Both the position numbers and the translations under genes were made by a program. From Minisyncoccota bacterium (GTDB lineage: Bacteria; Patescibacteriota; Minisyncoccia; Phycocordibacterales; UBA9973): a stretch of 64,000 bases of DNA. Numbering within the stretch: position 1 is the first letter of the stretch; each line of letters begins with the position of its first letter. Location: contig DAOQAL010000001.1 in NCBI GenBank assembly GCA_035353995.1, positions 308,104 to 372,103 of the forward strand, given 5' to 3'. Of the stretch, positions 14,171 through 31,718 are shown one piece after another. The notes below the pieces were generated by a model, which was given only the letters and a program-made list of their open reading frames with translations, was not told where the DNA came from and did not search any database.

Positions 14171-17056
14171 ATGAAAGAATATAACCACAAAAAAATTGAA
14201 TTAAAAGTTCAAAAAGAATGGGAAAAGAAAAAAAGTTTTCAAGCTAAAGAAAAAAAAAGCAAAAAATTTTATGGCTTGATTGAGTTTCCATACCCATCTG
14301 GTGATGGACTTCATGTAGGACATCCTAGACCTTATATTGGTATGGATGTAATTTCAAGAAAAAAAAGAATGGAAGGATATAATGTTCTTTTTCCGATTGG
14401 CTGGGATGCATTCGGTTTGCCAACAGAAAATTATGCTATTAAAACTGGTATTCATCCAAAAATAGTTACTAAAAAAAATACTGATAATTTTCGAAGACAA
14501 ATAAAAATGTTGGGAATTTCTTTTGATTGGTCACGAGAAATAAATACTACAGATCCTTCTTATTATAAATGGACTCAATGGTTGTTTTTACAATTTTTTA
14601 AAAAAGGACTTGCATATAAAAATAAAAGTGAAATTAATTGGTGTCCAAAAGATAAAATTGGTTTAGCAAATGAAGAAGTTGTAGATGGAAGATGTGAACG
14701 TTGTGGAACGTTGACTGAGAAAAAAGAAAAAGAACAATGGATGCTTGCTATAACAAAATATGCAGACAGGTTAGATAAAGATTTAGATTTAGTTGATTAT
14801 CCTGAACGTGTAAAATTATCACAAAAAAACTGGATAGGGAAATCAGAGGGAAGTGAAATAGAATTTTCAATTAAAAACTCAACTGAAAAAATAAAAGTAT
14901 TCACGACTCGCGCAGATACATTGTTTGGTGTAACTTATGTTGTCCTTGCACCAGAACATCCCCTCTTGTCAAAGACCGTCTTTGACAGATTAGGAAATAA
15001 GAAAGAGGTTGAAGAGTATATTAAAAAAGTAAAAAATAAATCAGATTTAGAAAGAACAGAAAATAAAGAAAAAAGCGGAGTAGAATTAAAAGGTATAAAA
15101 GCTATTAATCCTGCCAATGGTGAAGAGATTTCAGTTTGGGTTGCTGATTATGTTTTGTCTCAATATGGAACCGGTGCGGTTATGGCAGTACCAGCACACG
15201 ACGAAAGAGATTTTGAATTTGCAAAAAAATATGGTTTGGAAATAAAACAAGTAATAATGAGTTGCGAAAATGATACTAAAAATCCTCCTCGTGATGGATT
15301 TGAAGAAGTGAAAAGAGACACTATAATTGTTTTTTTAAAAAATAAAGAAACTGAGAAGTATGCCTTACTTAATTGGCATAATAGTCTTGAAGGAATAACA
15401 ACGGCTATAATGGGAGGAATAGAAATTGGACAAACTCCTGAGCAAGCAGTTTTGACAGAAATCCAAGAAGAAGCATCTTTAACTGGAATAAAAATAACAA
15501 AAAAACTTAGATGGATTACAGCTGCGAAATATTGTGCTTCTCATAAAAATCAAAATCGTTGCGCTATTTCGCATGTTTATTTAGCAGAAATTGATAACAT
15601 AAAAAATCAAGGCGAGATAGAGGAATATGAAAAAAATACACATACATTAATTTGGGTAGATAAAAAAGAAGTTTTAAATAAATTAACGCCAAATCATCAG
15701 AAATTTATTTGGGAACAATTATTTAATGAAACAGCTTTGGTTGATGATGGAATTTTAATGAATTCGGGAAAATTTAATGGTATGGATTCTGAAGAAGTTA
15801 GAGCAAAAATTACAGAATTTGTTGGAGGAAAAATTGTTACTAAATTTAAATTGCGTGATTGGGTTTTTTCACGTCAACGATATTGGGGTGAACCTATACC
15901 AATTGTGAATTGCCCAAAATGTGGTTTAGTTCCTTTGAAAGAAAAAGATTTGCCATTAAAATTACCTGATGTAAAAAGTTATAAACCAACAAATACTGGA
16001 GAATCTCCACTTGCTGGAATTTCAAAATGGGTAAATACAAAATGTCCTAAGTGTAAAGGAAAAGCAAAAAGAGAAACTGACACAATGCCAAACTGGGCTG
16101 GAAGTTCATGGTATTATTTGCGTTACACTGATCCAAAAAATAAAAATAAATTTGCCGATATGAAAAAATTAAAATATTGGCTTGGCAAAAATCCTAAGCA
16201 TGGAGGAGTAGATTGGTATAACGGAGGAATGGAGCATACAACATTGCATCTTTTGTATTCTCGTTTTTGGCATAAATTTTTGTATGATTTAAAATTAGTT
16301 CCAACTGCAGAACCGTATGCAAAGAGAACCAGCCATGGAATGATTTTAGGTGCTGGTGGTGTGAAGATGTCAAAGTCTCTTGGTAATGTTGTGAACCCAG
16401 ATCAGATTGTAAAAACTTATGGTGCAGATACGTTAAGAGTTTATGAAATGTTTATGGGTCCATTTGAAGATGCTGCTGTTTGGAATACAGAAAGTATTAT
16501 TGGTTCAAGAAGATTTATAGAAAAAGTTTGGAGGATTGGAGAAAAAATAAAATCTTCTAGCTCTCACACTACTGAGAGAAAAAAGAATTCTTCTAATTCT
16601 ATTGTTAAACTTCTACACAAGACGATTAAAAAAGTTTCTGAAGATATTGAAGCAATGCGTTTCAATACAGCAATTTCATCTATGATGATTTTGACAACAG
16701 AGATGGAAAAAGCAGAATCAGTTTCAAAAGATGACTATAAAAAGTTTTTACAAATACTTTCTCCTTTTGCACCACACATTGCAGAAGAAATTTGGAATTC
16801 ATTTGGAGAAAAAAAGAGTATTAATTATTCAAAATGGCCATCTTGGGATGAAAATTTAATAAAAGATGAAGAAATAAAAATTATAATTCAAGTAAATGGA
16901 AAAGTTAGAGCAGAAATTATGATTTCTGCAGACGAAAATGAAGAAAATATCAAAAAAAATGCAACAATGCATCCTTCAGTACAAAAATTTATCGAAAATA
17001 GGGAAATCAAGAGGATAATTTACGTAAAAAACAAACTTGTAAACTTAGTAATTTAA
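14171..17056 (+). CDS. leuS: leucyl-tRNA synthetase carrying an inserted Nudix-like domain
   Basis: HIGH (HVGHP) and KMSKS motifs; editing domain with TTRADT and GTGAVMAVPAHDERDFEFA. At aa ~365-525 there is a ~140-aa insertion relative to E. coli LeuRS holding a Nudix box, GGIEIGQTPEQAVLTEIQEEASL. Confidence 0.95.
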   Translation: MKEYNHKKIELKVQKEWEKKKSFQAKEKKSKKFYGLIEFPYPSGDGLHVGHPRPYIGMDVISRKKRMEGYNVLFPIGWDAFGLPTENYAIKTGIHPKIVTKKNTDNFRRQIKMLGISFDWSREINTTDPSYYKWTQWLFLQFFKKGLAYKNKSEINWCPKDKIGLANEEVVDGRCERCGTLTEKKEKEQWMLAITKYADRLDKDLDLVDYPERVKLSQKNWIGKSEGSEIEFSIKNSTEKIKVFTTRADTLFGVTYVVLAPEHPLLSKTVFDRLGNKKEVEEYIKKVKNKSDLERTENKEKSGVELKGIKAINPANGEEISVWVADYVLSQYGTGAVMAVPAHDERDFEFAKKYGLEIKQVIMSCENDTKNPPRDGFEEVKRDTIIVFLKNKETEKYALLNWHNSLEGITTAIMGGIEIGQTPEQAVLTEIQEEASLTGIKITKKLRWITAAKYCASHKNQNRCAISHVYLAEIDNIKNQGEIEEYEKNTHTLIWVDKKEVLNKLTPNHQKFIWEQLFNETALVDDGILMNSGKFNGMDSEEVRAKITEFVGGKIVTKFKLRDWVFSRQRYWGEPIPIVNCPKCGLVPLKEKDLPLKLPDVKSYKPTNTGESPLAGISKWVNTKCPKCKGKAKRETDTMPNWAGSSWYYLRYTDPKNKNKFADMKKLKYWLGKNPKHGGVDWYNGGMEHTTLHLLYSRFWHKFLYDLKLVPTAEPYAKRTSHGMILGAGGVKMSKSLGNVVNPDQIVKTYGADTLRVYEMFMGPFEDAAVWNTESIIGSRRFIEKVWRIGEKIKSSSSHTTERKKNSSNSIVKLLHKTIKKVSEDIEAMRFNTAISSMMILTTEMEKAESVSKDDYKKFLQILSPFAPHIAEEIWNSFGEKKSINYSKWPSWDENLIKDEEIKIIIQVNGKVRAEIMISADENEENIKKNATMHPSVQKFIENREIKRIIYVKNKLVNLVI

Positions 17057-17147: not shown

Positions 17148-20100
17148 ATGTCAGAAAAACATAAGAATAAAAGAGTTTTACAACTAATAAGAAATATTTT
17201 ACAAATACTTAAACCAAAGTTGTCTTTTCACTATATTGCATACACTACTTTAGTAGCTTTGGTTGTTTTTTCTTTAGTAAATTTAGTTGGTGCTACAACT
17301 CCAAACCCTGGTCACTCATGGTCTGAAGTTGGAGATGGTGTTTTTGCAGTAACAAATAATCAAACAGCAATTCGCACTTACACTTTTCCAGATGCAAATG
17401 CAACTGTACTTACTACTAACGCACTTGTTACTGTTGCACAAGGTGGAACTGGTGCAAATACTTTAACAGGAATTTTAATTGGAAATGGAACTTCTGCTTT
17501 TACATCTGTAGCACTTACTGCAGGACAATCAATTCGAATGAATTCAGGTGGAACAGCTTATGAAGGTTTTACTCCTGGAACAGGAAATGTTAATTCTATC
17601 TCTGTCGCAACTTCAAATGGTTTTGCTGGTTCATCTTCTGGTGGTTCAAATCCAATCTTAACTTTATCTACTACTATCTCTGGAATGTTGAAAGGAAATG
17701 GAACTGCAATCAGTGCAGCAACAGATGGTTCTGATTTTCTTTCTTCTTCGACAGGATGGAAATTAAATGGACAAGCTCTCGGCACAAAAAAAACTCTTGG
17801 GTCTACTGATGGATATGCAATTGGTTTTCTAACTAATAATTCAGAAAGAATGACAATACTTTCTGGTGGTAACATTGGTATCGGTGTAACTTCACCGACA
17901 GCAGTTTTACATTTGAAAGCTGGTACTGCAACAGCAGGAACTGCACCATTAAAATTTGCATCAGGAGTATTACTAACAACTCCAGAAACAGGAGCAATGG
18001 AATTTGATGGAACTAATTTATATTTCACACCAGTTGATTTACGAAAGACAATTGCTTTTACAGAAGACATTGCATCTGGCTACGTTCCATACACAGGTGC
18101 AACTGCTGACGTTAATCTTGGAGCTTTTGATTTAACAACTACAGATCTTAATGTAAGTGGTATCGCTAATTTTACTGGAAGCGTTGCTGTTAACACTGAC
18201 CCAGACAACAACACTAGTGGTTTTGAATATGGAAATGGTTATGATCCATCTTCAAGTTATTATTACAATGAAAGATTTCGAGTAAATAGTTTTATGGAAA
18301 CACCACATATGTCTTTAGGTGTTGCTTCAAACTTTTTACTATATTCTGAAGATTTTTCAAATGCCGCTTGGGTAAAAACAAGTATAGGTTCAGTTAGTGC
18401 AAATGGTGTTAATGCTCCTAATGGATCAACTACTGCAGAAAATATTCCAGCTGGTTCTGCTTCAACTGCTAATATAGCTCAAACAATTACAAACAGTACT
18501 ACAGGATACTGGTCTGCTGGTGTTTGGGCAAGAACTCAAAGTGGAACAGCTACTATAGATTTGCAAATTGATAATGGATCAGCAGAAATTGGAACTCCTA
18601 AAACAGTTACAGTGGATACAAAATGGCGCTTCTTTGGTGTTGCTCAAAATTTTAGTCCTTCTTCTAATACAACAAAAACTTTTAAAATAACTTCTGGAAC
18701 AACAGCAATTTCTTTATGGGGTGCAAGAATGAATCAAGGTGAAACGATAAATTCATATCGTGCTACAACAAGTTCAAATTCTTCTACTCCTACATTTGGT
18801 GCATTTTTCAACAACACAACAATTTACGGTACTCTTTCTGGAAGTGCAAGTTCAGCTGGCTATGCTACTTATTCAAATAGTGGAATTTATGGTGGAGTAA
18901 CATTATCAAATACTACTGGCAATGCTGGAAAGTGGGAATTATTAGGATATGTAACTTTAACATATAACTCTACTTATGATTATGGACATTCTTGGGATTA
19001 TGAAGTCAACCTGAAAGAAATTAATAATGATGATTCAGCAATTTCACAAGTTGATTATGAGGATATTACTTTAAAACTTAAAGGAAATTTAGCAGAAGCA
19101 ACTAGTACTGCTACTTTCAATTCCGCTGTACCAACTTTCTCTATTGATGTTTCTGGTGCTACGCAATTAACTTCTAGTGATTTTGCAGCTGTTGTTTATT
19201 CGACAAGTACTTCAACTAAGGTAATTAGATATTATGTAAAATTGCCAGCTGCTAATTCTCATTACATGATTGTACCTATTAACTATCGTGGAGTTAGCTA
19301 TAACAGTACATTAGGTATAAGTACTTCTTACGTTTCTTGGACAACTTCTTCTAGTACTGCTGTGATAACAACCTTACCAACTCCACCTGCTGGTCAAGGT
19401 TCTGTAGTAAATGGAAATATTCTTTACACAACATACAAAGGCAATGGAATATTTAGTGGACTATTAAGTGGTACAGCTTTGAAATCTGCTAAGTGGTATC
19501 CAGGTGCTGACTCTACAACTGCAATTCAAATTAATAAAGCAGATGGTTTAACAAATATTATAAATATTGATACAACAAATGGAAGAATGGGTATCGGTAC
19601 AACTTTACCAACAGCATTACTAAATCTAGCAGCCGGTACTGCATCAGCAGGAACTGCTCCACTCAAATTTACATCAGGAACATTATTAACTACACCAGAG
19701 GATGGATCAGTAGAATTTGATGGAACTCACTATTATGTAACAGTTGGTTCTACTAGATACCAATTAGATCAACAAGCTCCAGGTGGAGGTATGGTGTACC
19801 CAGGATCAGGAATTGCAGTCTCAACAGGTTCTGCTTGGGGAACTTCAATCAGTGGAACATCTTCACAATTTGTAAAAGGTGATGGAAGTTTGGATTCAAA
19901 TACATACTTAACAACTTCTTCTGCTTCTTCAACTTATGTTCCTTACACTGGAGCAACAAGTGCAGTAGATTTAGGTGTTCATAATCTTACTGTTGATACA
20001 AATACATTGTTTGTAGATTCAACAAATCATAGAGTTGGAATCGGAACAACAAGTCCTACATCTAAGTTATATGTTAGTAGTGGAGGCGGAGTTAATTCTG

Positions 20101-23100
20101 GCATTGTTATTAAATCTGATGGAACAACTGGGACATATGCATCATTAGATTATGTAAATAAAAACAATGTAGCATTTCAGACAGGCTTATATGATTCTGG
20201 TAATGCTTTCTTTTATATGCCTTCAACTGGAAATAATATTGGATTCTATACGAACGATCTTGAAAGAATGACTATAGCAAAAACAGGTAATGTCGGAATT
20301 GGTACAACGAGTCCAACAGTTCCATTAGACATCACTGGAGCGGTAAACATATCAACTGGAAATTTAGATTTAGACAATACAACAAATGCAAATCAATATG
20401 GAGTGATCACAAAAAATGGGATCAGATTCATTCACAATTTTAATTATGGAAACAACGGTACTGTAACGACAGAAGGACATAATTTATTTATTGGAGAAAA
20501 TGCCGGTAACTTTACGATGGGATCAACGGCAAATTATGCTAATTATTCTTCAAGCAATGTTGGAATCGGTTATTCTACGTTAAGTTCGAATACAACTGGA
20601 TACTATAACTCTGCTGTAGGAATTTATGCTCTTTATTCTAACACCACAGGATACTCTAACTCTGCAATAGGAACACATGCTCTTATGCTTAATACCACAG
20701 GGTACGCTAACTCTACAGTAGGAAATGATGCTCTTTATAATAATACTTCAGGGTACAAGAACTCTGTAATTGGAAGTACAGCTCTCTTTAATAATACAAC
20801 AGGATACTCTAACTCTGCGATGGGATATGAAGCCGGCCGCTATGTTACAGGAAATGTAGCTAACACAACCAGTGATTATAGTATATACCTTGGTGCTAAT
20901 ACCAAAGCTCTTGCTGATGATGATCAAAATGAAATTGTAATAGGTTACGATGCTACGGGTGCCGGTTCAAACACTGCAGTAATAGGTAGCAGTTCTTTAA
21001 CTTCTGTATACCTCGGAAGTTCTACACCTAGCGCTAGACTATACACTAAAGGTATAACGTTATCTGCAGGTACAGCAACTGCTGGAACTGCTCCATTGAA
21101 GTTCACATCAGGAACATTGTTAGGAACAACGGAAGCAGGAACAATGGAATTTAATGGAACACATTTATACTTTACAGTAGCAAATAGCGGAACAAGATAT
21201 CAATTAGATCAACAAGCTCCAGGTGGAGGTATGGTTTACCCAGGAGCAGGTATTCCAATTTCAACAGGTTCTGCTTGGGGAACTTCAATCAGTGGAACAT
21301 CTTCACAATTTGTAAAAGGGGATGGAAGTTTGGATTCAAATACATACTTAACAACTTCTTCTGCATCTTCAACTTATGTTCCATATACTGGAGCAACAAG
21401 TGCAGTAGATTTAGGTGTTCATAATCTTACTGTTGATACAAATACATTGTTTGTAGATTCAACAAATCATTTTGTTGGTATTGGAACAACAACACCGAGT
21501 GTAAAACTAAATGTACTTGGTGTAACTGCGTTGCAATCTGGTGATGCTGATGGTGCTCTACGGATTGGTGCTGATGTTTTGGCTACTACACTTTCATCAA
21601 ATGTAAGAAAATTGGGAAGAGTAACAGCTCCTTCTTATAGTAATACATATTATTATTCATTGTTTTCTGCTGATAGTGATACGGGTGGTGATGGAATAGA
21701 ATTTGGAGGTAGAGCAGGAGCATTAAATTCATCTCCAACATATATTTCATTTGCTACAACTCCAACAGCAGGAAGTAGCGCTGGAAATGCGGAACGAATG
21801 AGAATAATAGGTAATGGAAACATTGGTATCGGCATAGCTTCACCAACAGCTAGATTACATTTACCAGCTGGTACAGCAACAGCAGGAACTGCTCCACTAA
21901 AATTTACATCAGGAACATTGTTAGGAACAACGGAAGCAGGAACAATGGAATTTAATGGAACACATTTATACTTTACAGTAGCAAATAGCGGAACAAGATA
22001 TCAATTAGATCAACAAGCTCCAGGTGGAGGTATGGTTTACCCAGGAGCAGGAATTCCAATTTCAACAGGCAGTGCTTGGGGAACTTCAATCAGTGGAACA
22101 TCTTCACAATTTGTAAAAGGGGATGGAAGCTTAGATTCAAATACATATTTAACTTCTGCTTCTTTGTCTGGTTATGTTCCTTATACTGGTGCAACCACAA
22201 ATGTAGTTCTCGGAGCAAATACTCTTTCAACAACTTCAGGTTTAATTTCTCCAAAACTTTATCCTGCAAGTGATTCAACAACAGCAATACAATTTAACAA
22301 AGCAGATGGAACAACAAATATTTTAAATATTGATACGACGAATTCTAGAGTTGGAATTGGGACAACAAGTCCAAGTGTTAAATTAGAAGTAGCGGGACAA
22401 GGTAAATTCATAAGTACAACTTTTCCAGTTCTTGATATAGTTAGAGATACAACGACTACTGCTGGTGGAGTTTATGGTGGTGCTAAATTAGAGAGAATTA
22501 TGACTGGCGGAACATCAGTCAATGGTACTGGTATAGGTTTTTATTTTAAGAATCCAGACTCAGCAGGAAATTCTACTTTTTCAGGTATTTTTGGTTCAGC
22601 ACTTTCAAGCGTAACAGATGGAAGTGAAGTCGGAGATGTTATTGTTTCTGCTGCTTGGCAAGGAGGAGATCCTTATTTAAATCAACACTTAGTTGTTAGA
22701 GCAACCGGCGCAACGACAGGTAACGTTTTGGTTCCGAATGGTAATGTCGGAATTGGAACAACTTCACCAAATCAACAATTAGAAATTACTCAAAACTTTA
22801 GACTTCCTTCTACAACTTATAATAGTGGAAATCCTTATGGGATAATTTACAAAGGAACAAATCCATTCATTCATGATTTCAATTATGGAAACAACGGTAC
22901 TGTAACGACAGAAGGACATAATTTATTTATTGGTGAAAGTGCAGGTAACTTTACAATGGGATCAACGGCAACATTATTAAGTCAATCATCAAACAATATT
23001 GGAATAGGGTATAATTCTCTTTCTGTAAATACTACTGGTTATGGCAATACAGCTATCAGCAATTATTCTTTGGAATCAAATACAACAGGTACTCAAAACT

Positions 23101-26100
23101 CTGCTATTGGTTATAAATCTCTGTCTAGTAATACTACTGGTAGCGTTAACTCTGCTTTTGGACCTTATTCTCTTTCTGGTAATACTACTGGTAGTAACAA
23201 TTCTGCTTTTGGATCTTATTCTCTTTCTGGTAATACTACTGGTATCTTAAATGTCGCTTTTGGTCAAAATGCTCTTTCTGGTAATACTACTGGTAATTAT
23301 AACTCTGCTTTAGGATATAACGCTGGTAGTTTTATTGCTGATGGTTCAACATCGAATACTTTTGGTTCAAATAGTTTATTTTTGGGCAGTTATTCAAGAG
23401 CTCTTGCTAATAATCAAACAAATCAAATTGTAATTGGTTATAATGCTATCGGTAACGGAAGCAATACAGCAACAATTGGAAACAGTTCTATATTAAGAAC
23501 ATATCTAAGAGGAGTAAATCTAGCAGCCGGTACTGCATCAGCTGGAACTGCTCCACTAAAATTTACATCAGGAACATTATTAGGAACACCTGAGACAGGA
23601 GCGATGGAATTTGATGGTTCTCACTATTACATAACAATAGGTTCAACTCGTTATCAATTAGATCAACAAGCTCCAGGTGGGGGTATGGTTTATCCAGGAG
23701 CGGGCATTCCAGTTTCGACAGGTTCAGCTTGGGATACATCTAAAACGGCACCTACGGGAGACATCGTTGGAACAACTGATACACAAGATCTTACTAACAA
23801 AACATACAATGGACTTTCTTTGTTAGGAAACAATACTGATTTTAATTCTTTTGTTGGTTACAATACTGGTCTTAATATTCCAAGCGGAGCACAATGGAAC
23901 TCTTTCTTTGGTTATGAAGCAGGAAAGGGAAGCGCAAGTACAAGTTATAATTATTCTAATACTGGAATAGGATATCAATCTTTGTATTCCATTACAGTTG
24001 GTAGTAATAACTCTGCACTAGGAAATAAGTCTCTGTACTATAATACTTCAGGATGGTCTAATACTGCAGTAGGAGATAGTTCACTTTCTTCTAATACTGA
24101 AGGTTATCTTAATGTTGCATTAGGTGTTGATTCTTTATCAAGTAATATTACAGGTTACGATAACTCTGCTATCGGTAGTTCTTCTATGTACTCTAACACT
24201 ACAGGTTACTATAACATCGCAATAGGAGGTGGTTCTATGTATTATAATACTACTGGAAATTATAACTCTGCTACAGGATATTCTTCTTTATCAAATAACA
24301 CAACAGGTAATATTAATTCTGCACTAGGATATGTAGCCGGATACTTTATAGCTGACAACTCAACGCCAAACACTACATCAGATTATAGTTTGTATTTAGG
24401 TGCATATACCAAAGCTCTTGCAGATAATGATCAAAATGAAATTGTAATTGGTTATGACACAACAGGTAATGGAAGCAACACAGCAACAATTGGAAACAGT
24501 TCTATATTAAGAACATATTTAAGAGGAGTAAATTTAGCAGGAGGTACAGCAACTGCAGGAACTGCTCCATTAAAATTTACATCAGGAACATTGTTAGGAA
24601 CTACAGAAGGTGGAGCAATGGAATTTGATGGTTCACATTTGTACTTCACAATAGCTGATAGCGGAACAAGATATCAATTAGATCAACAAGGAGGTATGGT
24701 TTATCCAGGAGCAGGTATTGCAATTTCAACAGGAAGTGCTTGGGGAACATCAATATCAGGAACATCCTCACAGTTTGTAAAAGGGGATGGAAGTTTAGAT
24801 TCAAATACATACTTAACAACTTCTTCTGCTTCTTCAACTTATGTTCCTTACACTGGAGCAACCACAGATGTAAATCTTGGAACACATACTCTTGCTTCAG
24901 GTTCAATAGATATCGCTACAGGTAATTTAGATTTAGATAACACTACTTATGCAAATCAATATGGATTGATTACCAAAAATGGAACCAGATTCATTCATAA
25001 TTTTTCCTACGGATTAAATGGAAATAATGTAACCCCAGAAGGTCGCAATTTATTTATTGGTGAAGGTGCCGGTAATTTTACGATGGGATCGGATGCAACT
25101 TACTATAGTTATTCTTCAAACAATATTGGAGTCGGTTATTCTACATTAAGTTTCAATACAACTGGATACGGTAACTTTGCGGTAGGAAGTTATGCTCTTT
25201 ATTACAACACCACAGGATACGGTAACTCTGCAATAGGAAAAAGTGCTCTGTTCTCTAATACTGAAGGATTCTTTAACTCTGCATTAGGAGATTCTGCTCT
25301 TAAATCTAATACTACAGGATATAGAAATATCTCAATGGGAAGTTACGCTCTTAATTCAAACACCACAGGAAGCCATAATTCTGCATTAGGATATAATACT
25401 GGTCGCTATATTGCAAACGGAAGCACTGGTAATACCACTAGTGACTACAGTGTATATCTTGGTGCTATGACAAAAGCTCTTGCCGACGATGATCAAAACG
25501 AAATTGTAATCGGTTACAACGCCACCGGTGCCGGTTCAAACACTGCCGTAATCGGAAACAGTTCTGTAACTTCGGTATATCTCGGAAGCTCTACTGCTGG
25601 CGCAAGACTCTACACTAATGGCGTAACGTTATCTGCCGGTACAGCAACAGCAGGAACTGCACCACTAAAATTTACATCAGGAACATTACTAGGAACAACA
25701 GAAGGTGGAGCAATGGAATTTGATGGTTCACATTTGTACTTTACTATAGCTGATAGCGGAACAAGATATCAATTAGATCAACAAGGAGGTATGGTTTACC
25801 CAGGATCAGGAATTGCAATCTCAACAGGAAGTGCTTGGGGAACTTCAATCAGTGGAACATCTTCACAATTTGTAAAAGGGGATGGAAGTTTGGATTCAAA
25901 TACATACTTAACCTCTGCATCTTTGTCTGGTTATGTTCCTTACACTGGTGCAACCACAAATGTAGTTCTCGGAGCAAATACTCTTTCAACAACTTCAGGT
26001 TTAATTTCTCCAAAACTTTATCCTGCAAGTGATTCAACAACAGCAATACAATTTAACAAAGCAGATGGAACAACAAATATTTTAAATATTGATACGACAA

Positions 26101-29100
26101 ATGGAAGAGTGGGAATGGGTACGACGAGTCCATCATCAATGCTTCATATTTATGATACTACTGCTAGCGGAACATTTGCTGATGGATTATATTTACAAGC
26201 AGGAAATGATGCAAATGCAATTAGGGTACGTTTGAAAAATACTAATTCTGATTTTTTTATTAACGCATACGGAACTGGAGCAATCGGTGCATTAGCAAAT
26301 TCAATTGGATTTTTTGCTAGTGGAAGTTCAACTAATGATTTTATTATTGGGCATACTGGAACAACTTCTGGAAATGATATTAGATTTTTTACAAATAATG
26401 ATTATTCAGATGCAAATGAATTAGTGATTACACAAGGCGGACTTGTTGGAATGGGAACATCAACTCCAACTGGAAAATTAAATATAATAAATACATCAGA
26501 ACAATTACGTATTGGATATAGTTCTAGTGTTTATTATTCAACTACAATTGATTCTACAGGGACAGTTATATTTGATTCTACTGGTGGCGCTTCATCTCGA
26601 TTTTCATTTGCAGACAATCTAGGTATCGGAACAACTTCACCAAGCAATATACTTTCTCTAGGTGGAACAACAGCTAGAACAATTTGGATGGAACGTAACA
26701 CAACAGCAGGAACTGCAGGACAGGCACTAACTTTGTTCTCTGGTGGTGCATATTCTGGTGGAACTAATTTGAATGGTGGAGATTTATATTTAAAATCTGG
26801 TATTTCTACTGGTACTGGATCATCATCTATGCATTTTCTTACTGCAACAGCAGGAAGTAGTGGAACAGCTGACAATACTCCAACCGAAAAAATGACTATT
26901 CTTGCTAATGGTAAAGTAGGTATTGGAAATACAAATCCATCATCAAAATTAACAGTTACTGATGTGAATAGTATTTTCTTCGTTCCAAACCAGGGAGCTA
27001 CTGGTGAAATTCCAGCAGGAACTGCAATGTCTACAAGTTCTAACTTTACATTTTTGGGAGATGGAACTGGTGGAGTTGGAAATGGAGTTATGGTTGCTTA
27101 TTACAATCAAACACAATGGCTTTCCGCCGTACAGACTGCAAACGTTAGTAGTGGTTATGGAAATTTATTGTTAATGAAATCTGGTGGATCTGTAGGTGTA
27201 GGTACTTCTGCTCCAACAGCTAGATTACATTTAGGAGCAGGATCAGCTACAGCAGGAACTGCTCCATTAAAATTTACATCAGGAACATTACTAACAACAG
27301 CTGAGGCAGGAGCAATGGAATTTGATGGAACTCACTATTATGTAACAGTTGGTTCTACTAGATACCAATTAGATCAACAAGCTCCAGGTGGAGGTATGGT
27401 TTATCCAGGAGCAGGTATTCCAATTTCAACAGGTTCTGCTTGGGGTACATCTATATCAGGAACATCTTCACAGTTTGTAAAAGGGGATGGAAGTTTAGAT
27501 TCAAATACATACTTAACAACTTCTTCTGCATCTTCAACTTATGTTCCATATACAGGTGCAACCACAAATGTAGTTCTCGGAGCAAATACTCTTTCAACAA
27601 CTTCAGGTTTAATTTCTCCAAAACTTTATCCTGCAAGTGATTCAACAACAGCAATACAATTTAACAAAGCAGATGGGACAACAAATATTTTAAATATTGA
27701 TACGACAAATGGGAGAGTGGGAATTGGGACAACAAGTCCTACTAAAAAATTAGAAGTATCTGGTAATTTAGGTGCTGGAGGAATATTTAATGTTAACTCT
27801 TCGACTCCAGCAGATTTCGTTGGTTTGGAAACCTCTTCTGGTCGTTCAGCTATTGTTTTCAACAATTCAAATTCCAGGATGTATTATGATTCTTCAGCAA
27901 ATACTTTTAATATGTTTCCAGTTGTTGGAACATATGATGACCCATCAAGTTGGAATTATTCAACGATGTCTTATGCCTTAACTAGTCAAACTCTATATTT
28001 GAATGGTGCTGGAGGAGTTGAAATTGGTCAAGGAGGTTTGATTTCTACAAAAATAGTTGATACAACTACTGATTATCAAAATTATACTGGTTCTACTTTC
28101 TCCATGTGGAAGAGATTAGGAAACAACACAGTAAATACATTAAATGGATTGAACTTAAATTATGGTGGATATTGGAGTGCTGCTGGAACTATTACTGATT
28201 CTGCTGGAATATACTCTGCTTTTGCAGCTGCTGATTCTTCGGCTGCTAATTTTACAAATGTTTATGGTATTAAAACAAGTTTTACTAATGTAGGAACTGG
28301 TACAATTACAAATCAATATGGTATTTATATTCCATCTGATTCAGTTGCTACAAATGTATATGGTATATCATCAAATATTGCTAGTGGAACTAATAAATGG
28401 AATATGTATGTTGCAGGTACAGCTAATAACTATTTTGCCGGCAATGTTGGAATCGGAACGACGACCCCACAAGCTGCATTAAATGTAATTGGAGACGTAA
28501 TGTTAGGATACAATTCAACAGGGCAAAAAATTTATCCATATTATTATAGTGCTACGAATTATAATGCAATTTCTTCTGATAGCTCAGGTGCTATGACATT
28601 TATCACTGGTGTTACATCTCCTTCAGAAAGAATGAGAATTGATAATTCTGGTTATGTTGGAATAGGTAATGCTTCTCCAGCAACGACTCTTGATATTACA
28701 GGAGCAGGTGGCTCTCCTTCTGGCACACCATCTTTTCCTGTTAGAGTTGTGTCTGGAACGAATACTAATCCAGGTATGATTTTTGAACGAAGTGATGCAA
28801 GTAAATTTGTTAACCTTTGGACGGGAAGTGGAGCAGCAATATTAGGATTTACTGATACTGCTTCAAGGATGGCTATTGGAACTTATACTTACGCAGATAG
28901 ATATTCTACTGGTTTCCCAACAAAAGAAATTTTGTCTCTTCTTCCTAGTGGAAATGTTGGAGTAGGAGTTACAAATCCTACAGCAAAACTTCATTTAAAA
29001 GCATCTGATGGGACAGCAGGAAGTGCATCATTAAAAATTACAGATGGAACATTGCTATCAACTCCAGAAGCAGGAGCAATAGAATTTGTTGGAACAAGTC

Positions 29101-31718
29101 TATACTTCACTCCATCTACTACAAGGAAGACAATTGCTTTTGCAGAAGATATTTCATCTGGTTATGTTCCTTATACTGGTGCAACCACAAATGTAGTTCT
29201 CGGAGCAAATACTCTTTCAACAACTTCAGGTTTAATTTCTCCAAAACTTTATCCTGCAAGTGATTCAACAACAGCAATACAATTTAACAAAGCAGATGGA
29301 ACAACAAATATTTTAAATATTGATACGACTAATGGGAGAGTTGGAATCGGAACAACTTCTCCAAATCAACAATTAGAAATTACTAAAAACTTTAGACTCC
29401 CTTCTACTACTTATAATAGCGGAAGTCCTTATGGAGTAATCTACAAAGGTACATCAACATTTATTCATGATTTTACCTACGGATTAAATGGGAATGGTAT
29501 AACACCATCAGGCTATAATACTTTCTTAGGTGTTAGTGCTGGTAATTTAACAATGGGTTCAACAGCTGCATATTCTTATCAATCTTCCTATAATACTGGA
29601 ATTGGAACTAGCGCATTATATGCAAATACAACTGGTAGAAGAAATACGGCAGTTGGTTCTAGCTCTTTAACTTACAACAATACAGGTTACCAAAATACAG
29701 CTGTTGGTTACTCTGCTCTCTATGCCAATAATAGTGGTGATACAAATACTGCATTAGGTGCACAGTCTCTTTATTCTAATACCACAGGTGCTAACAATGT
29801 TGGTGTTGGATACTATTCTTTAGGTGGAAATGTTTCAGGTACAAATAATATAGGGATAGGGGGCAGTTCTGGTTATTATATTTCTGATGGTACTACATCT
29901 AATACAGCAGGAACATATTCTATATTTTTAGGACAAAATACAAAAGCTTTAGCTGATTCTCAAACAAACCAAATTGTTATCGGATATAATTCAATAGGTC
30001 TTGGAAGTAATACTGTAACTTTAGGAAATAGTAGTATCATTACAACAGCATTAAGAGGTAATATAGGAATCGGAACAACAAGTCCAGATAGATTATTGCA
30101 TGCTGAAGTTTCTGATGCTGTAACCAATGCAGTAACTTATGCAGGACGTTTGTCTCATATAACTTCTGGAACATCTGCAACAAGTTTTGGAACAGGATTA
30201 GAATTTGAATTAGAAAATGCTTCTGGTACAAATAAAATAGCAAGTACAATTGAATCTGTTTGGGAAACTGCAACAGATGCGTCTGAAGATAGTGCGATTG
30301 TTTTCAAAAATATGATAGGTGGAACTAGTGCAGCAGAAGTTCTTAGAATCAGAAAAGAGGGAACAAGCTCTACTTCTCTTAAAACACTAAGTTCGTTACA
30401 AATTGCGCCTACTGATGATTTTACAATTTATCAAAATTTAGTAACTCCATTTACTTCTGTTGGTTCTGGTGCAGTTGATGATACTTTAGTTCTTAAAGCT
30501 GGAAACGTAGGAATTGGCAACGATGCTCCAGGAGCTTTACTTGATATTGGTTATTCAGGAACTACTGGAGGAGTAATAAGATTAGAAGGAAGCTCAAGAA
30601 ATTATGTTGATATTGCAGCTGCTGCAGATGCTGGAGCTTGGACAATGACATTACCTGCAAGTACAGGAACTACTGGACAGCAACTTACAACAAATGGTTC
30701 TGGTGTAACTTCTTGGCAAGCTGCTGGTTCTTTAAGAAGTATTAAAAATGTTTTTGACGAAGTTACTCCAGAAGAAGGATTAGAACAAGTACTTACAACA
30801 GCAGTTTATCATTTCAAATATAAACCTGGTTTAGGAACTGGTGATAGCGATACTATGTATGTTGGTGTGATGGCTGATGAAGCTCCTTGGGCAATGCATT
30901 ATAATGGAACCATTGTTAACCCAGTAAATACTTTAGGTTATATGATCTTGTCCACAAAAGCTCTTAATGAAAAAATAGTGGCACTTGGTTCAACTGTTGA
31001 TGATATGAATTTGAAATTAAAAAATTTGGAAACTATATTGCCAACAGATTTAATAGAAGATCCTGATACTTTTGGAAATAATTTTGTTGCATTATTTAAT
31101 GATGTAATTATAAAAGTTGAAGACGGTGTTGCATATATGAAAGGAATAGCAACAGATACATTAAAAATAGGTAGTTCAGAAAAAAGAACTGGTATAACTT
31201 TGTATGATGAAGTTACTGGAGATCCATATTGTATTTCTGTTGCAGATGGTAAAAGTAAAACTACTGAAGGTGAATGCGGAACTATAACTCCTGAAGATGT
31301 TATTGCTACTTCTCAAGGTTCAGATTTACCGACAGAAAGTTCAGATTCAACTGATACAACAACTGATACTATTGTAGCAACAATAGATGGAGCAACAGAA
31401 ACAACTACAACAGAAGAATCAACAATAGGTACAGAATCAACAAACATAACAACACAAACAATAGATACATTACTTGCTGAAGCAGATCCACCACAAATAA
31501 CATTAAACGGAGATAGCTCTATAACATTAACAGTTGGTTCTACTTATGAAGAACTTGGTGCACTTGCAACATCTGATATAGATGGAACAGTTGCAGTAAT
31601 CATTGAAGGTTCAGTTGATACAAATACAGTTGGAACTTATATTATTTCTTATAAAGCTTTTGATACAAATGGAAATTCAGCTACTCCTGTAGAAAGAATC
31701 GTAAATGTAACTTTGTAA
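17148..31718 (+). CDS. giant 4856-aa surface fibre/adhesin-like protein. N-terminal TM anchor, tail-fibre-like repeats, Hep_Hag/YadA-head-like repeats and a CBM-like module. C-terminal peptidase-S74-type intramolecular chaperone domain and a terminal Ig-like (DUF5011-like) domain
   Basis: A single uninterrupted ORF. The N-terminal hydrophobic helix is YIAYTTLVALVVFSLVNLVGA. About nine copies of the module AGTAPLKFTSGTLL..MEFDG.HLYFT..TRYQLDQQAPGGGMVYPG..SQFVKGDGSLDSNTYL...VPYTGAT....RVGIGTTSP. Hep_Hag-type heptad blocks, NTTGYxNSAxGxxAL. The CBM-like piece is SEDFSNAAWVKTSIG. The C-terminal SLRSIKNVFDEV...VYHFKYK...YVGVMADEAPWAMHY...LNEKIVAL matches the CIMCD/S74 pattern. Confidence 0.85.
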   Translation: MSEKHKNKRVLQLIRNILQILKPKLSFHYIAYTTLVALVVFSLVNLVGATTPNPGHSWSEVGDGVFAVTNNQTAIRTYTFPDANATVLTTNALVTVAQGGTGANTLTGILIGNGTSAFTSVALTAGQSIRMNSGGTAYEGFTPGTGNVNSISVATSNGFAGSSSGGSNPILTLSTTISGMLKGNGTAISAATDGSDFLSSSTGWKLNGQALGTKKTLGSTDGYAIGFLTNNSERMTILSGGNIGIGVTSPTAVLHLKAGTATAGTAPLKFASGVLLTTPETGAMEFDGTNLYFTPVDLRKTIAFTEDIASGYVPYTGATADVNLGAFDLTTTDLNVSGIANFTGSVAVNTDPDNNTSGFEYGNGYDPSSSYYYNERFRVNSFMETPHMSLGVASNFLLYSEDFSNAAWVKTSIGSVSANGVNAPNGSTTAENIPAGSASTANIAQTITNSTTGYWSAGVWARTQSGTATIDLQIDNGSAEIGTPKTVTVDTKWRFFGVAQNFSPSSNTTKTFKITSGTTAISLWGARMNQGETINSYRATTSSNSSTPTFGAFFNNTTIYGTLSGSASSAGYATYSNSGIYGGVTLSNTTGNAGKWELLGYVTLTYNSTYDYGHSWDYEVNLKEINNDDSAISQVDYEDITLKLKGNLAEATSTATFNSAVPTFSIDVSGATQLTSSDFAAVVYSTSTSTKVIRYYVKLPAANSHYMIVPINYRGVSYNSTLGISTSYVSWTTSSSTAVITTLPTPPAGQGSVVNGNILYTTYKGNGIFSGLLSGTALKSAKWYPGADSTTAIQINKADGLTNIINIDTTNGRMGIGTTLPTALLNLAAGTASAGTAPLKFTSGTLLTTPEDGSVEFDGTHYYVTVGSTRYQLDQQAPGGGMVYPGSGIAVSTGSAWGTSISGTSSQFVKGDGSLDSNTYLTTSSASSTYVPYTGATSAVDLGVHNLTVDTNTLFVDSTNHRVGIGTTSPTSKLYVSSGGGVNSGIVIKSDGTTGTYASLDYVNKNNVAFQTGLYDSGNAFFYMPSTGNNIGFYTNDLERMTIAKTGNVGIGTTSPTVPLDITGAVNISTGNLDLDNTTNANQYGVITKNGIRFIHNFNYGNNGTVTTEGHNLFIGENAGNFTMGSTANYANYSSSNVGIGYSTLSSNTTGYYNSAVGIYALYSNTTGYSNSAIGTHALMLNTTGYANSTVGNDALYNNTSGYKNSVIGSTALFNNTTGYSNSAMGYEAGRYVTGNVANTTSDYSIYLGANTKALADDDQNEIVIGYDATGAGSNTAVIGSSSLTSVYLGSSTPSARLYTKGITLSAGTATAGTAPLKFTSGTLLGTTEAGTMEFNGTHLYFTVANSGTRYQLDQQAPGGGMVYPGAGIPISTGSAWGTSISGTSSQFVKGDGSLDSNTYLTTSSASSTYVPYTGATSAVDLGVHNLTVDTNTLFVDSTNHFVGIGTTTPSVKLNVLGVTALQSGDADGALRIGADVLATTLSSNVRKLGRVTAPSYSNTYYYSLFSADSDTGGDGIEFGGRAGALNSSPTYISFATTPTAGSSAGNAERMRIIGNGNIGIGIASPTARLHLPAGTATAGTAPLKFTSGTLLGTTEAGTMEFNGTHLYFTVANSGTRYQLDQQAPGGGMVYPGAGIPISTGSAWGTSISGTSSQFVKGDGSLDSNTYLTSASLSGYVPYTGATTNVVLGANTLSTTSGLISPKLYPASDSTTAIQFNKADGTTNILNIDTTNSRVGIGTTSPSVKLEVAGQGKFISTTFPVLDIVRDTTTTAGGVYGGAKLERIMTGGTSVNGTGIGFYFKNPDSAGNSTFSGIFGSALSSVTDGSEVGDVIVSAAWQGGDPYLNQHLVVRATGATTGNVLVPNGNVGIGTTSPNQQLEITQNFRLPSTTYNSGNPYGIIYKGTNPFIHDFNYGNNGTVTTEGHNLFIGESAGNFTMGSTATLLSQSSNNIGIGYNSLSVNTTGYGNTAISNYSLESNTTGTQNSAIGYKSLSSNTTGSVNSAFGPYSLSGNTTGSNNSAFGSYSLSGNTTGILNVAFGQNALSGNTTGNYNSALGYNAGSFIADGSTSNTFGSNSLFLGSYSRALANNQTNQIVIGYNAIGNGSNTATIGNSSILRTYLRGVNLAAGTASAGTAPLKFTSGTLLGTPETGAMEFDGSHYYITIGSTRYQLDQQAPGGGMVYPGAGIPVSTGSAWDTSKTAPTGDIVGTTDTQDLTNKTYNGLSLLGNNTDFNSFVGYNTGLNIPSGAQWNSFFGYEAGKGSASTSYNYSNTGIGYQSLYSITVGSNNSALGNKSLYYNTSGWSNTAVGDSSLSSNTEGYLNVALGVDSLSSNITGYDNSAIGSSSMYSNTTGYYNIAIGGGSMYYNTTGNYNSATGYSSLSNNTTGNINSALGYVAGYFIADNSTPNTTSDYSLYLGAYTKALADNDQNEIVIGYDTTGNGSNTATIGNSSILRTYLRGVNLAGGTATAGTAPLKFTSGTLLGTTEGGAMEFDGSHLYFTIADSGTRYQLDQQGGMVYPGAGIAISTGSAWGTSISGTSSQFVKGDGSLDSNTYLTTSSASSTYVPYTGATTDVNLGTHTLASGSIDIATGNLDLDNTTYANQYGLITKNGTRFIHNFSYGLNGNNVTPEGRNLFIGEGAGNFTMGSDATYYSYSSNNIGVGYSTLSFNTTGYGNFAVGSYALYYNTTGYGNSAIGKSALFSNTEGFFNSALGDSALKSNTTGYRNISMGSYALNSNTTGSHNSALGYNTGRYIANGSTGNTTSDYSVYLGAMTKALADDDQNEIVIGYNATGAGSNTAVIGNSSVTSVYLGSSTAGARLYTNGVTLSAGTATAGTAPLKFTSGTLLGTTEGGAMEFDGSHLYFTIADSGTRYQLDQQGGMVYPGSGIAISTGSAWGTSISGTSSQFVKGDGSLDSNTYLTSASLSGYVPYTGATTNVVLGANTLSTTSGLISPKLYPASDSTTAIQFNKADGTTNILNIDTTNGRVGMGTTSPSSMLHIYDTTASGTFADGLYLQAGNDANAIRVRLKNTNSDFFINAYGTGAIGALANSIGFFASGSSTNDFIIGHTGTTSGNDIRFFTNNDYSDANELVITQGGLVGMGTSTPTGKLNIINTSEQLRIGYSSSVYYSTTIDSTGTVIFDSTGGASSRFSFADNLGIGTTSPSNILSLGGTTARTIWMERNTTAGTAGQALTLFSGGAYSGGTNLNGGDLYLKSGISTGTGSSSMHFLTATAGSSGTADNTPTEKMTILANGKVGIGNTNPSSKLTVTDVNSIFFVPNQGATGEIPAGTAMSTSSNFTFLGDGTGGVGNGVMVAYYNQTQWLSAVQTANVSSGYGNLLLMKSGGSVGVGTSAPTARLHLGAGSATAGTAPLKFTSGTLLTTAEAGAMEFDGTHYYVTVGSTRYQLDQQAPGGGMVYPGAGIPISTGSAWGTSISGTSSQFVKGDGSLDSNTYLTTSSASSTYVPYTGATTNVVLGANTLSTTSGLISPKLYPASDSTTAIQFNKADGTTNILNIDTTNGRVGIGTTSPTKKLEVSGNLGAGGIFNVNSSTPADFVGLETSSGRSAIVFNNSNSRMYYDSSANTFNMFPVVGTYDDPSSWNYSTMSYALTSQTLYLNGAGGVEIGQGGLISTKIVDTTTDYQNYTGSTFSMWKRLGNNTVNTLNGLNLNYGGYWSAAGTITDSAGIYSAFAAADSSAANFTNVYGIKTSFTNVGTGTITNQYGIYIPSDSVATNVYGISSNIASGTNKWNMYVAGTANNYFAGNVGIGTTTPQAALNVIGDVMLGYNSTGQKIYPYYYSATNYNAISSDSSGAMTFITGVTSPSERMRIDNSGYVGIGNASPATTLDITGAGGSPSGTPSFPVRVVSGTNTNPGMIFERSDASKFVNLWTGSGAAILGFTDTASRMAIGTYTYADRYSTGFPTKEILSLLPSGNVGVGVTNPTAKLHLKASDGTAGSASLKITDGTLLSTPEAGAIEFVGTSLYFTPSTTRKTIAFAEDISSGYVPYTGATTNVVLGANTLSTTSGLISPKLYPASDSTTAIQFNKADGTTNILNIDTTNGRVGIGTTSPNQQLEITKNFRLPSTTYNSGSPYGVIYKGTSTFIHDFTYGLNGNGITPSGYNTFLGVSAGNLTMGSTAAYSYQSSYNTGIGTSALYANTTGRRNTAVGSSSLTYNNTGYQNTAVGYSALYANNSGDTNTALGAQSLYSNTTGANNVGVGYYSLGGNVSGTNNIGIGGSSGYYISDGTTSNTAGTYSIFLGQNTKALADSQTNQIVIGYNSIGLGSNTVTLGNSSIITTALRGNIGIGTTSPDRLLHAEVSDAVTNAVTYAGRLSHITSGTSATSFGTGLEFELENASGTNKIASTIESVWETATDASEDSAIVFKNMIGGTSAAEVLRIRKEGTSSTSLKTLSSLQIAPTDDFTIYQNLVTPFTSVGSGAVDDTLVLKAGNVGIGNDAPGALLDIGYSGTTGGVIRLEGSSRNYVDIAAAADAGAWTMTLPASTGTTGQQLTTNGSGVTSWQAAGSLRSIKNVFDEVTPEEGLEQVLTTAVYHFKYKPGLGTGDSDTMYVGVMADEAPWAMHYNGTIVNPVNTLGYMILSTKALNEKIVALGSTVDDMNLKLKNLETILPTDLIEDPDTFGNNFVALFNDVIIKVEDGVAYMKGIATDTLKIGSSEKRTGITLYDEVTGDPYCISVADGKSKTTEGECGTITPEDVIATSQGSDLPTESSDSTDTTTDTIVATIDGATETTTTEESTIGTESTNITTQTIDTLLAEADPPQITLNGDSSITLTVGSTYEELGALATSDIDGTVAVIIEGSVDTNTVGTYIISYKAFDTNGNSATPVERIVNVTL
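19650..20055 (+). repeat. intragenic near-identical DNA repeat, family A (tail-fibre module), copy 1
   Basis: The 35-mer caattagatcaacaagctccaggtggaggtatggt recurs at 19761, 21201, 22002 and 27366, with variants at 23655, 24675 and 25770. Reverse-frame ORFs are identical across copies. Confidence 0.8.
21075..21500 (+). repeat. intragenic repeat family A, copy 2
   Basis: Same module, near-identical at DNA level to 19650-20055. Confidence 0.8.
21870..22375 (+). repeat. intragenic repeat family A copy 3, fused to family B copy 1 (from ~22188)
   Basis: Family B is the unit ggtgcaaccacaaatgtagttctcggagcaaatactctttc...tttaacaaagcagatgg. It occurs at 22188, 25947, 27555 and 29178. Confidence 0.8.
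23527..23735 (+). repeat. intragenic repeat family A, truncated copy 4
   Basis: Same APLKFTSGTLL...QLDQQAPGGGMVYPGAG block. Confidence 0.7.
24543..24900 (+). repeat. intragenic repeat family A, copy 5 (variant lacking the APGG codons)
   Basis: QLDQQGGMVYPGAG variant; otherwise near-identical. Confidence 0.75.
25640..26135 (+). repeat. intragenic repeat family A copy 6 fused to family B copy 2
   Basis: Near-identical to 24543-24900 and 22188-22375. Confidence 0.8.
27245..27745 (+). repeat. intragenic repeat family A copy 7 fused to family B copy 3
   Basis: Near-identical DNA; the matching antisense small ORF is at 27440-27654. Confidence 0.8.
29178..29365 (+). repeat. intragenic repeat family B, copy 4
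   Basis: The same ~170-bp unit, encoding TTNVVLGANTLSTTSGLISPKLYPASDSTTAIQFNKADGTTNILNIDTTNGRVGIGTTSP. Confidence 0.8.

Follow-up and report, generated by a model that had tools for sequence, protein, structure and literature searches.

Dispersed in-frame repeats in a giant Paceibacterota gene show a pattern consistent with concerted evolution

The window analysed here, a stretch of 64,000 nucleotides (nt) from a Paceibacterota bacterium in the Candidate Phyla Radiation (CPR; contig DAOQAL010000001.1, assembly GCA_035353995.1), contains a giant gene with two repeated modules, A and B, whose copies keep the reading frame, all point the same way and are set between heterogeneous domains. A single open reading frame (ORF) encoding 4,856 amino acids (aa) covers the whole repeat region, as seen in the ORF list and the translation (Table 1). 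Identity among the module copies is mosaic, the relationships of module cores disagree with those of their flanks, the copies cluster by genome, and homologues of the gene differ in cassette content. The mosaic runs and the clustering by genome therefore support gene conversion with lineage-specific duplication, and we consider it probable that the modules are connectors kept alike by purifying selection and gene conversion, with duplication of cassettes within individual lineages.

Under this explanation, the repeats would be the DNA of a conserved connector module in a giant secreted fibre-like protein, and the amino-acid motif of the module would be held by strong purifying selection. Synonymous differences would be patchily erased by repeated homologous recombination (gene conversion) in tracts of roughly 60-170 nt, presumably through RecA-type recombination, and whole 'domain + connector' cassettes would be duplicated per lineage, changing copy number. 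Unequal exchange would delete or duplicate 801 nt if it occurred between A2 and A3 and 1,608-6,990 nt if it occurred between B copies. Because the copies share frame and direction, such exchange would remove or add whole cassettes and leave the frame intact. The number and order of cassettes, and hence the length of the fibre, could change in this way over evolutionary time, and changes in length or cassette content may have adaptive value.

Modules A and B and their degree of identity

Motif mapping and alignment place nine copies of module A in the giant gene, with the core L-x-AGTA-x-AGTAPLKF-TSGTLL-..-E-.-GA-.-EF-.-G-..-LY (also written L-x-AGTA-x-AGTAPLKF...EFDG..LYFT). Seven of the nine carry a 59-residue insert, 'RYQLDQQ(APG)GGMVYPG...SNTYLT' (the long form), which is absent from the other two (the short form). 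Four A copies run on into module B ('YVPYTGATTNVVLGANTLSTTSGLISPKLYPASDSTTAIQFNKADGTTNILNIDTTNGRVGIGTTSP'), which has the motif 'YVPYTGAT...KLYP...GIGTTSP'. The seven family A and four family B copies counted in the original prediction are borne out as the long-form A and the KLYP-containing B copies; beyond that count lie the short-form copies A0 and A8, a B-like copy (B0) and a larger repeated unit consisting of a 17-residue-repeat domain plus A (20355-21352 versus 24918-25912, 80.7% identity). The 35-mer CAATTAGATCAACAAGCTCCAGGTGGAGGTATGGT occurs exactly four times, as had been noticed, and a fifth copy has one mismatch (0 expected, 100 shuffles). A precise in-frame indel of 9 nt, QLDQQAPGGGMVYPG versus QLDQQGGMVYPG (APG), was also confirmed in A5 and A6.

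Module copies are spaced 801-3,759 nt apart, and the domains between them are unlike one another: five consist of 17-residue (51-nt) repeats (H domains) and several others are unique. The only tandem arrangement is that of the 51-nt sub-repeats within H domains, at 73-78% identity.

The repeats had been described as almost identical, which is true of family B, whose copies are 95-96% identical over 198 nt (93.5-98% in blastn pairs), but not of family A, in which blastn pairs are 80-91% identical. Synonymous divergence (dS) between copies, whose calculation had been proposed as a check on recent conversion, is 0.10-0.20 in B by the Nei-Gojobori method (with nonsynonymous divergence, dN, of 0.007-0.03); the same method gives dS of 0.14-0.53 for the QLDQQ block of A and 0.27-1.13 for its first block. 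Differences are unevenly spread, leaving exact tracts of 122 nt in all four B copies, 146 nt between A2 and A3 and 173 nt between B1 and B4, the last being the longest exact repeat in the window.

Mosaic identity within the gene

Alignment of the variable sites gives a patchwork in which the nearest partner of a copy switches along the module. A2 tracks A3 over its first half and A1 over its second; A5 tracks A6, next A7 and next A1; and A3, A6, A7 and A8 are identical through B. To assess these runs, we took the longest stretch of variable sites that each pair has in common and tested it by permutation, correcting p over all pairs. A2 and A3 have 36 consecutive variable sites in common (global permutation p < 0.0002), A1 and A7 have a run of 19 (p 0.017), and A5 and A6 a run of 17 (p 0.04).

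Relationships of cores and flanks are also in conflict. Upstream of A2 lies a domain with relatives upstream of A5 and of A6 (60-90% identity in 30-nt windows), but the A2 core is 100% identical to A3 throughout their 146-nt tract, and the upstream flanks of A2 and A3 are unrelated. Similarly, B4 equals B1 over the 173-nt tract, yet it is preceded by A8, the most diverged A copy (dN 0.31-0.43 versus the others), and the identity of A8B4 to other copies rises at 'YVPYTGAT' from about 40-70% to 100%.

Copies compared between genomes

Giant homologues came from an exhaustive profile search; a word-indexed search missed them because the proteins it yielded in practice did not greatly exceed the query in length. 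One homologue, P0164 (4,953 aa), is encoded at a locus from another metagenome (L127) that is syntenic with the window, having the same run of seven downstream genes, and its N-terminus is 66% identical to that of the giant protein. Copies of B are 95-98% identical in nucleotides within a genome and 75-79% between the window and L127. At third codon positions, 86-97% of sites agree among B copies of one genome but 42-53% between the two genomes; single-copy genes of the same pair give 46-56%. Codon bias cannot explain the likeness within genomes, because the baseline for third positions between genomes is about 50%.

Module A follows the same pattern, with EYDG and TNL in all L127 copies and EFDG or EFNG and TLL or VLL in all window copies, and L127 has an A+B pair of its own that is 100% identical over 377 nt. 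An Omnitrophica ORF of 2,906 aa has nine module matches, with copies 77-87% identical in nucleotides inside the gene, and the copies at an Elusimicrobia locus are 76-83% identical within the gene; copies from both are just 45-48% identical in amino acids to those of the window. Copies are more alike within a genome than between genomes, which is a signature of concerted evolution. The other patterns expected of that process, mosaic tracts with changing partners and disagreement of core and flank, are likewise present, and together the three support the original suggestion that the copies are homogenised by intragenic recombination or gene conversion.

The window gene and P0164 have kept their ends and downstream synteny, and their interiors are strongly different. 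There are nine copies of module A in the window gene and five in P0164, four of module B (plus one diverged copy) and two, five 17-residue-repeat domains and one, and one 'MERNT' domain and three; a 445-aa domain, U1, lies at residue 336 in the former and residue 1957 in the latter, and the L127 homologue lacks the long QLDQQ form. A further homologue, P0001 (locus L126), has N- and C-termini like those of the giant protein, is only 1,250 aa long and contains two short-form modules. Since cassette content differs among homologues, length and cassette number change on the scale of species divergence. A scan of the genome collection found no close species, the best full-module match being 48% identical.

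These differences in copy number, together with the lack of the long QLDQQ form in the L127 homologue and the larger duplicated unit of H domain plus A, are what would be expected of pure birth-and-death, in which copies are alike only because each lineage duplicated them recently and independently, and existing copies exchange nothing. Plain duplication, however, predicts one tree per unit, and the relationships of the blocks conflict: the closest partner changes inside single modules, the flank of A2 is related to A5 and A6 and its core is identical to A3, and B4, identical to B1 over up to 173 nt, stands behind the diverged A8. We therefore regard duplication without exchange as unlikely to account for the pattern.

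Population variation and soundness of the assembly

The exact 4,856-aa product is present on six contigs from several sources. Contig CAZGCM010000001.1 (assembly GCA_964524305.1) is a 100% match to the window, and a contig from JGI 3300010352 has one single-nucleotide polymorphism (SNP) relative to the window over the 38.5 kb covered, with unchanged structure. This population comparison is one of consensus assemblies of one strain-level population, in which minority variants would not show. The 90%-identity cluster of the giant protein contains no length variant and only one 364-aa fragment. A metagenome scan with a unique mid-gene segment, which missed the window's own contig too, returned only distant one-domain relatives and no strain variants. 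The sole difference found between the window and both JGI 3300010352 and ENA ERZ27257423 is an A/G site at 19502, which is the third base of a codon of the giant gene.

It had been proposed that copy number, and with it fibre length, could change rapidly in a population. Rapid change is not borne out by the six identical products, the single SNP and the lack of length variants, and the suggested comparison of strains for copy-number variation showed none in the one strain-level population. Length and copy number do vary between species-level homologues (nine versus five A copies, and the 1,250-aa relative), but not within the population.

Another possible source of the pattern is the assembly itself, if a short-read assembler switching between copies had created the order, the number or the mosaic of the repeats. 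Short-read contigs do break at the exact tracts. A k141 (MEGAHIT) contig, L004, ends at 21245 with its terminal 141-mer wholly inside the 146-nt tract; L125 begins at 29300, one base past the four-copy 122-nt tract; and L124 begins at 29207 and ends at 33426, inside a pair of paralogous secreted-protein genes. The contig names of related records (k141, NODE_) suggest short-read assemblers, and giant repetitive genes are known to fragment in short-read assemblies (bioRxiv 10.1101/2023.11.21.568195). Nevertheless, L004, L124 and L125 match the window base for base to their ends, bar one SNP each in L004 and L124, the identical product recurs on all six contigs, and the JGI contig, from an assembly made separately, has the same structure and a SNP of its own. 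At <=173 nt, the exact tracts can terminate de Bruijn-graph contigs but are still bridgeable by read pairs, and simple collapse is not expected because the repeats are dispersed, not tandem. An assembler-made pattern is thus very unlikely.

The predicted assembly risk is real in the form of fragmentation, but collapse or mis-ordering was not seen among the agreeing separate assemblies, among which no long-read assembly was found. Judging from these short-read-type assemblies, mis-assembly of the window gene is unlikely, and the window copy of the gene seems sound. Two Logan contigs (L005 and L006) both stop at 18136, which is at the end of module A0 and is not the end of any exact repeat of at least 21 nt.

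Overlapping reading frames and points against exchange

The ORFs at 22076, 25835 and 27440, which the original prediction had called spurious and antisense, are indeed spurious, but they are actually out of frame on the + strand. Antisense ORFs do exist separately, with 65-67 aa, at 22090-22287, 25849-26046 and 27451-27654. In L127, stops interrupt every alternative frame over B and neither set of ORFs is kept; sense and antisense ORFs are therefore by-products of the repeat, and we rejected functional overlapping ORFs on the basis of these broken frames. A nucleotide-level constraint on synonymous sites, whether imposed by RNA structure, by a DNA site or by an ORF that overlaps or runs antisense, might be suspected from the recurrence of the out-of-frame and antisense ORFs and from 122 nt that are identical in four copies, synonymous sites included, but it is most improbable given that about half of the third positions differ in the L127 module, that the alternative frames are broken in that one homologue, which shows no covarying RNA fold either, that their products are low-complexity nonsense and that codon bias yields only about 50% third-position identity for this genome pair.

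Several points weigh against gene conversion between connectors of a fibre. A single sequence does not fully separate gene conversion from repeated duplication with different boundaries, and certain mosaic junctions could be duplication end-points. The closest copies still differ by 2-5% overall, and with about one SNP per 38.5 kb and no structural difference there is therefore no sign of present-day exchange. A systematic repeat-resolution error common to all assemblies would also count against it but is unlikely. With regard to the protein, assignment to trimeric fibres rests on sequence similarity of a short motif, and the monomer model of A+B is poor and has no structural match.

Nature of the protein

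By inference from its sequence, the protein is most reasonably read as an episymbiont's attachment fibre, modular and very long, in which A/B connects the heads, and this fibre may be trimeric. The 17-residue-repeat domains match tail-spike and virion-structural families of PHROG (E 4e-41 and 6e-52). A phmmer search with aa 975-1305 against the PDB matched the mosaic adhesive trimer (MAT) fibres of Bdellovibrio (8ond, E 1.7e-5; 8oml, E 3.4e-5; 8ojn, E 3.8e-4), the match being limited to the shaft motif ERMxI..GNVGIGT ('ERMxI..GNVGIGTxxPxxxL'). A weakly S74-like region of the giant protein (Table 1) has 'SLRSIK' in place of SDxxxK and is followed by a Thr/Ser-rich linker and then an immunoglobulin (Ig)-like domain. 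The S74 region of P0164 is canonical, with 'SDINLKK' and a precomputed PF13884 match on the gene product. In the window protein, the S74-type chaperone region would be at most vestigial and self-cleavage may have been lost.

At E <= 1e-3, a profile of the A/B module matches 6,432 representative proteins, of which 34 reach E <= 1e-30; many of the proteins matched have 5-12 matching stretches. Genome matches of the module are mostly in Patescibacteria and also in Omnitrophica, Elusimicrobia, Bdellovibrionales and Bacteroidota; block 1 of module A was also found in metagenome-assembled genomes (MAGs) of Bdellovibrionales. Pfam searches with ten segments and nine module copies gave nothing above noise, and searches with the giant protein identified the C-terminal Ig-like domain as the sole Pfam family and nothing in NCBIfam. 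The A/B profile had no significant match among solved structures (best E 0.069), and a tblastn search of deposited phage genomes with the module turned up a single match, of 26 residues. An AlphaFold2 monomer model of A3+B1 (51 sequences) reached a predicted local distance difference test score (pLDDT) of 67 and a predicted template modelling score (pTM) of 0.38, with only residues 10-50 confident, and a Foldseek search of this model against the PDB returned no match with E < 1.

Four stand-alone proteins of 233-238 aa from other metagenomes (P0140, P0153, P0161 and P0162) contain the module-A core, AGTATAGTAPLKFTSGTLL, exactly or with 1-2 substitutions, and the rest of their sequence is unrelated. 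Its occurrence in unrelated small proteins indicates that the core is a mobile, strongly constrained motif without a family model.

Features and chromosomal setting

Table 1. Features of the giant gene, with coordinates in the window
Feature	Coordinates	Strand	Basis or remarks
Giant gene	17148..31718	+	nr entry 'DUF5011 domain-containing protein [Candidatus Paceibacterota bacterium]'
N-terminal hydrophobic segment, aa 29-48	17232..17291	+	Signal peptide or membrane anchor; read from translation
Module A0, short form, without QLDQQ insert	17910..18152	+	Motif map, alignment
B0, diverged B-like copy, 'KWYP...GIGTT'	19491..19622	+	Motif map; blastn 19508-19605 versus B copies 83-85%
Module A1, long form, with 'VDLGVHNLTVDTNTLFVDSTNH' tail	19623..20063	+	Downstream half 93-100% identical to A2
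H1, 17-residue (51-nt) repeat domain	20064..21056	+	51-nt tandem arrays
Other four 17-residue-repeat domains	22788-23516, 23748-24530, 24888-25625, 29373-30047		
Module A2, long form	21057..21503	+	Tract 21105-21250 (146 nt) exactly equals 21906-22051 in A3
Module A3 + B1	21858..22382	+	22167-22339 exactly equals 29157-29329 (173 nt)
Module A4	23517..23747	+	Truncated after QLDQQ block
Module A5	24531..24887	+	9-nt in-frame deletion (QLDQQGGMVYPG)
Module A6 + B2	25626..26141	+	9-nt deletion in A6
Module A7 + B3	27228..27749	+	blastn, alignment
Module A8, diverged short form 'SASLKI', + B4	28986..29372	+	
QLDQQ of the seven long-form A copies (nt position)	19761, 21201, 22002, 23655, 24675, 25770, 27366		
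KLYP-containing module B, four copies	about 22167, 25926, 27539, 29157		
122-nt tract exact in all four B copies	22188..22309, 25947-26068, 27555-27676, 29178-29299	+	Exact k-mer census
Weak S74-like (intramolecular chaperone) region	30729..31067	+	PF13884 E 0.071, 13.9 bits, cutoff 22
C-terminal bacterial surface Ig-like domain (DUF5011 type)	31497..31709	+	PF16403 E 1.1e-16

The N-terminal hydrophobic segment is directly followed by the conserved motif ATTPNPGH, and the giant protein has a conserved N-domain of 200 aa; its first 250 aa are 66-74% identical in P0001 and P0164.

The window has a GC content of 31.5%, and the giant gene lies among housekeeping genes (leuS, murJ, lepA, eno, ppdK); the other ordinary chromosomal genes around it include ychF, four tRNAs and a member of the Sua5/YciO/YrdC family (Pfam PF01300). 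Because of these housekeeping neighbours, we rejected a prophage or phage origin of the gene. Phage, recombinase and reverse-transcriptase genes were all absent from the window genes scanned, and the lack of the latter two led us to reject a diversity-generating retroelement or a site-specific inversion system. A Y1 (IS200/IS605-type) transposase gene adjoins the giant-gene homologue in both related loci (L126 6932-7612, - strand; L127 6944-7603, + strand), and none was found among the window genes scanned. In the leucyl-tRNA synthetase (14171-17056), residues 382-513 form an inserted NUDIX domain that comes after the editing domain.

The giant gene has downstream of it a tandem pair of paralogues (32844-33899 and 33919-34977), both coding for secreted proteins, that are 85% identical in nucleotides and share a 133-nt exact stretch. 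The equivalent pair in L127 (23806-24763 and 24958-25915) is 84.6% identical mutually and 70-72% identical to the window pair. The paralogues are more alike within a locus, and there has therefore been concerted evolution or parallel duplication outside the giant gene as well. A conserved set of further downstream genes (window 34998-38593; L127 25973-31265) encodes secreted or anchored proteins. One of these (36013-36930) has a weak dockerin-like C-terminus and a cohesin-domain protein is encoded in L127, a hint that a CPR bacterium may build a surface assembly of the cohesin-dockerin type.

Relation to known systems

Periscope proteins (SasG, Rib, Sgo_0707) are repetitive bacterial surface proteins of variable length, in which intragenic recombination has been proposed to add or remove units and so change protein length, and whose repeats must be counted with long reads (Whelan et al. 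2021, PMC8201768). Their repeats are tandem arrays of one folded domain that vary in number between strains, and adjacent SHIRT domains are 82-100% identical (PMC8201768). The giant gene resembles them in having long, similar, in-frame DNA repeats within a surface-protein gene. Its repeats, however, are not tandem arrays but dispersed connectors 0.8-3.8 kb apart with unlike domains between them, and their DNA identity is 95-96% in B and 80-91% in A, with dS of 0.10-0.53 outside the first A block. In contrast to the strain-level variation of Periscope repeats, no variant was seen here in one population, and numbers differ between distant homologues.

MAT fibres of Bdellovibrio bacteriovorus are surface-displayed trimers resembling phage tail fibres and have been studied as candidate prey-recognition adhesins; in some members the last domain is an S74 chaperone (Caulton et al. 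2024, PMC10769870). The giant protein is similar in its likeness to phage tail fibres, its chimeric domains, its presumed place in an attaching bacterium, the shaft-motif match to 8ond and the S74 region of P0164. Unlike MAT proteins, it is four to five times longer, has many interspersed head-like domains in place of one tip, and has a degenerate S74 region.

Phage tail-fibre genes are mosaic, and in the distal tail fibre locus of T-even phages conserved motifs flank exchangeable receptor-binding segments. The giant gene likewise has short conserved stretches between variable domains that might serve as sites of homologous exchange. It differs in being chromosomal with no phage genes nearby, in that exchange would take place between copies inside one gene, and in that the module is almost absent from deposited phage genomes.

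Giant genes of Omnitrophota and of other bacteria with a predatory or episymbiotic way of life encode very long extracellular proteins, of 30,000 aa and more, with a suspected role in cell attachment (West-Roberts et al. 2023, bioRxiv 10.1101/2023.11.21.568195). Common to both are a long, extracellular, repeat-rich protein and the fragmentation of short-read assemblies, and the Omnitrophica ORF has the same module. The gene described here is far shorter and has no HEAT, TPR or dockerin arrays within it. We conclude that it is a dispersed-repeat relative of Periscope proteins and mosaic tail fibres and belongs to a known kind of phenomenon.

Significance

This mode of evolution is familiar for surface proteins, and our results open no new question and overturn no expectation. 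They add a CPR case, with a direct test between genomes, to the rule of intragenic recombination in surface and attachment proteins. In practical terms, giant CPR fibre genes will usually break in short-read MAGs at exact tracts longer than the assembler k, and their lengths in databases are therefore not trustworthy at face value. The results also point to an unannotated connector module in thousands of large proteins of Patescibacteria, Omnitrophota, Elusimicrobia, Bdellovibrionota and Bacteroidota.

A more far-reaching idea, which we offer tentatively and consider rather doubtful, is that the A/B connectors are built-in, in-frame recombination joints with which receptor-binding cassettes are shuffled, duplicated and discarded in one attachment fibre, thereby tuning host range. 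If true, this would be a cellular counterpart of phage tail-fibre mosaicism in a host-dependent CPR bacterium, and the module, which lacks a Pfam or NCBIfam model but occurs in about 6,400 representative proteins, would be the hallmark of an undescribed class of modular fibres, widespread among episymbiotic and predatory bacteria.

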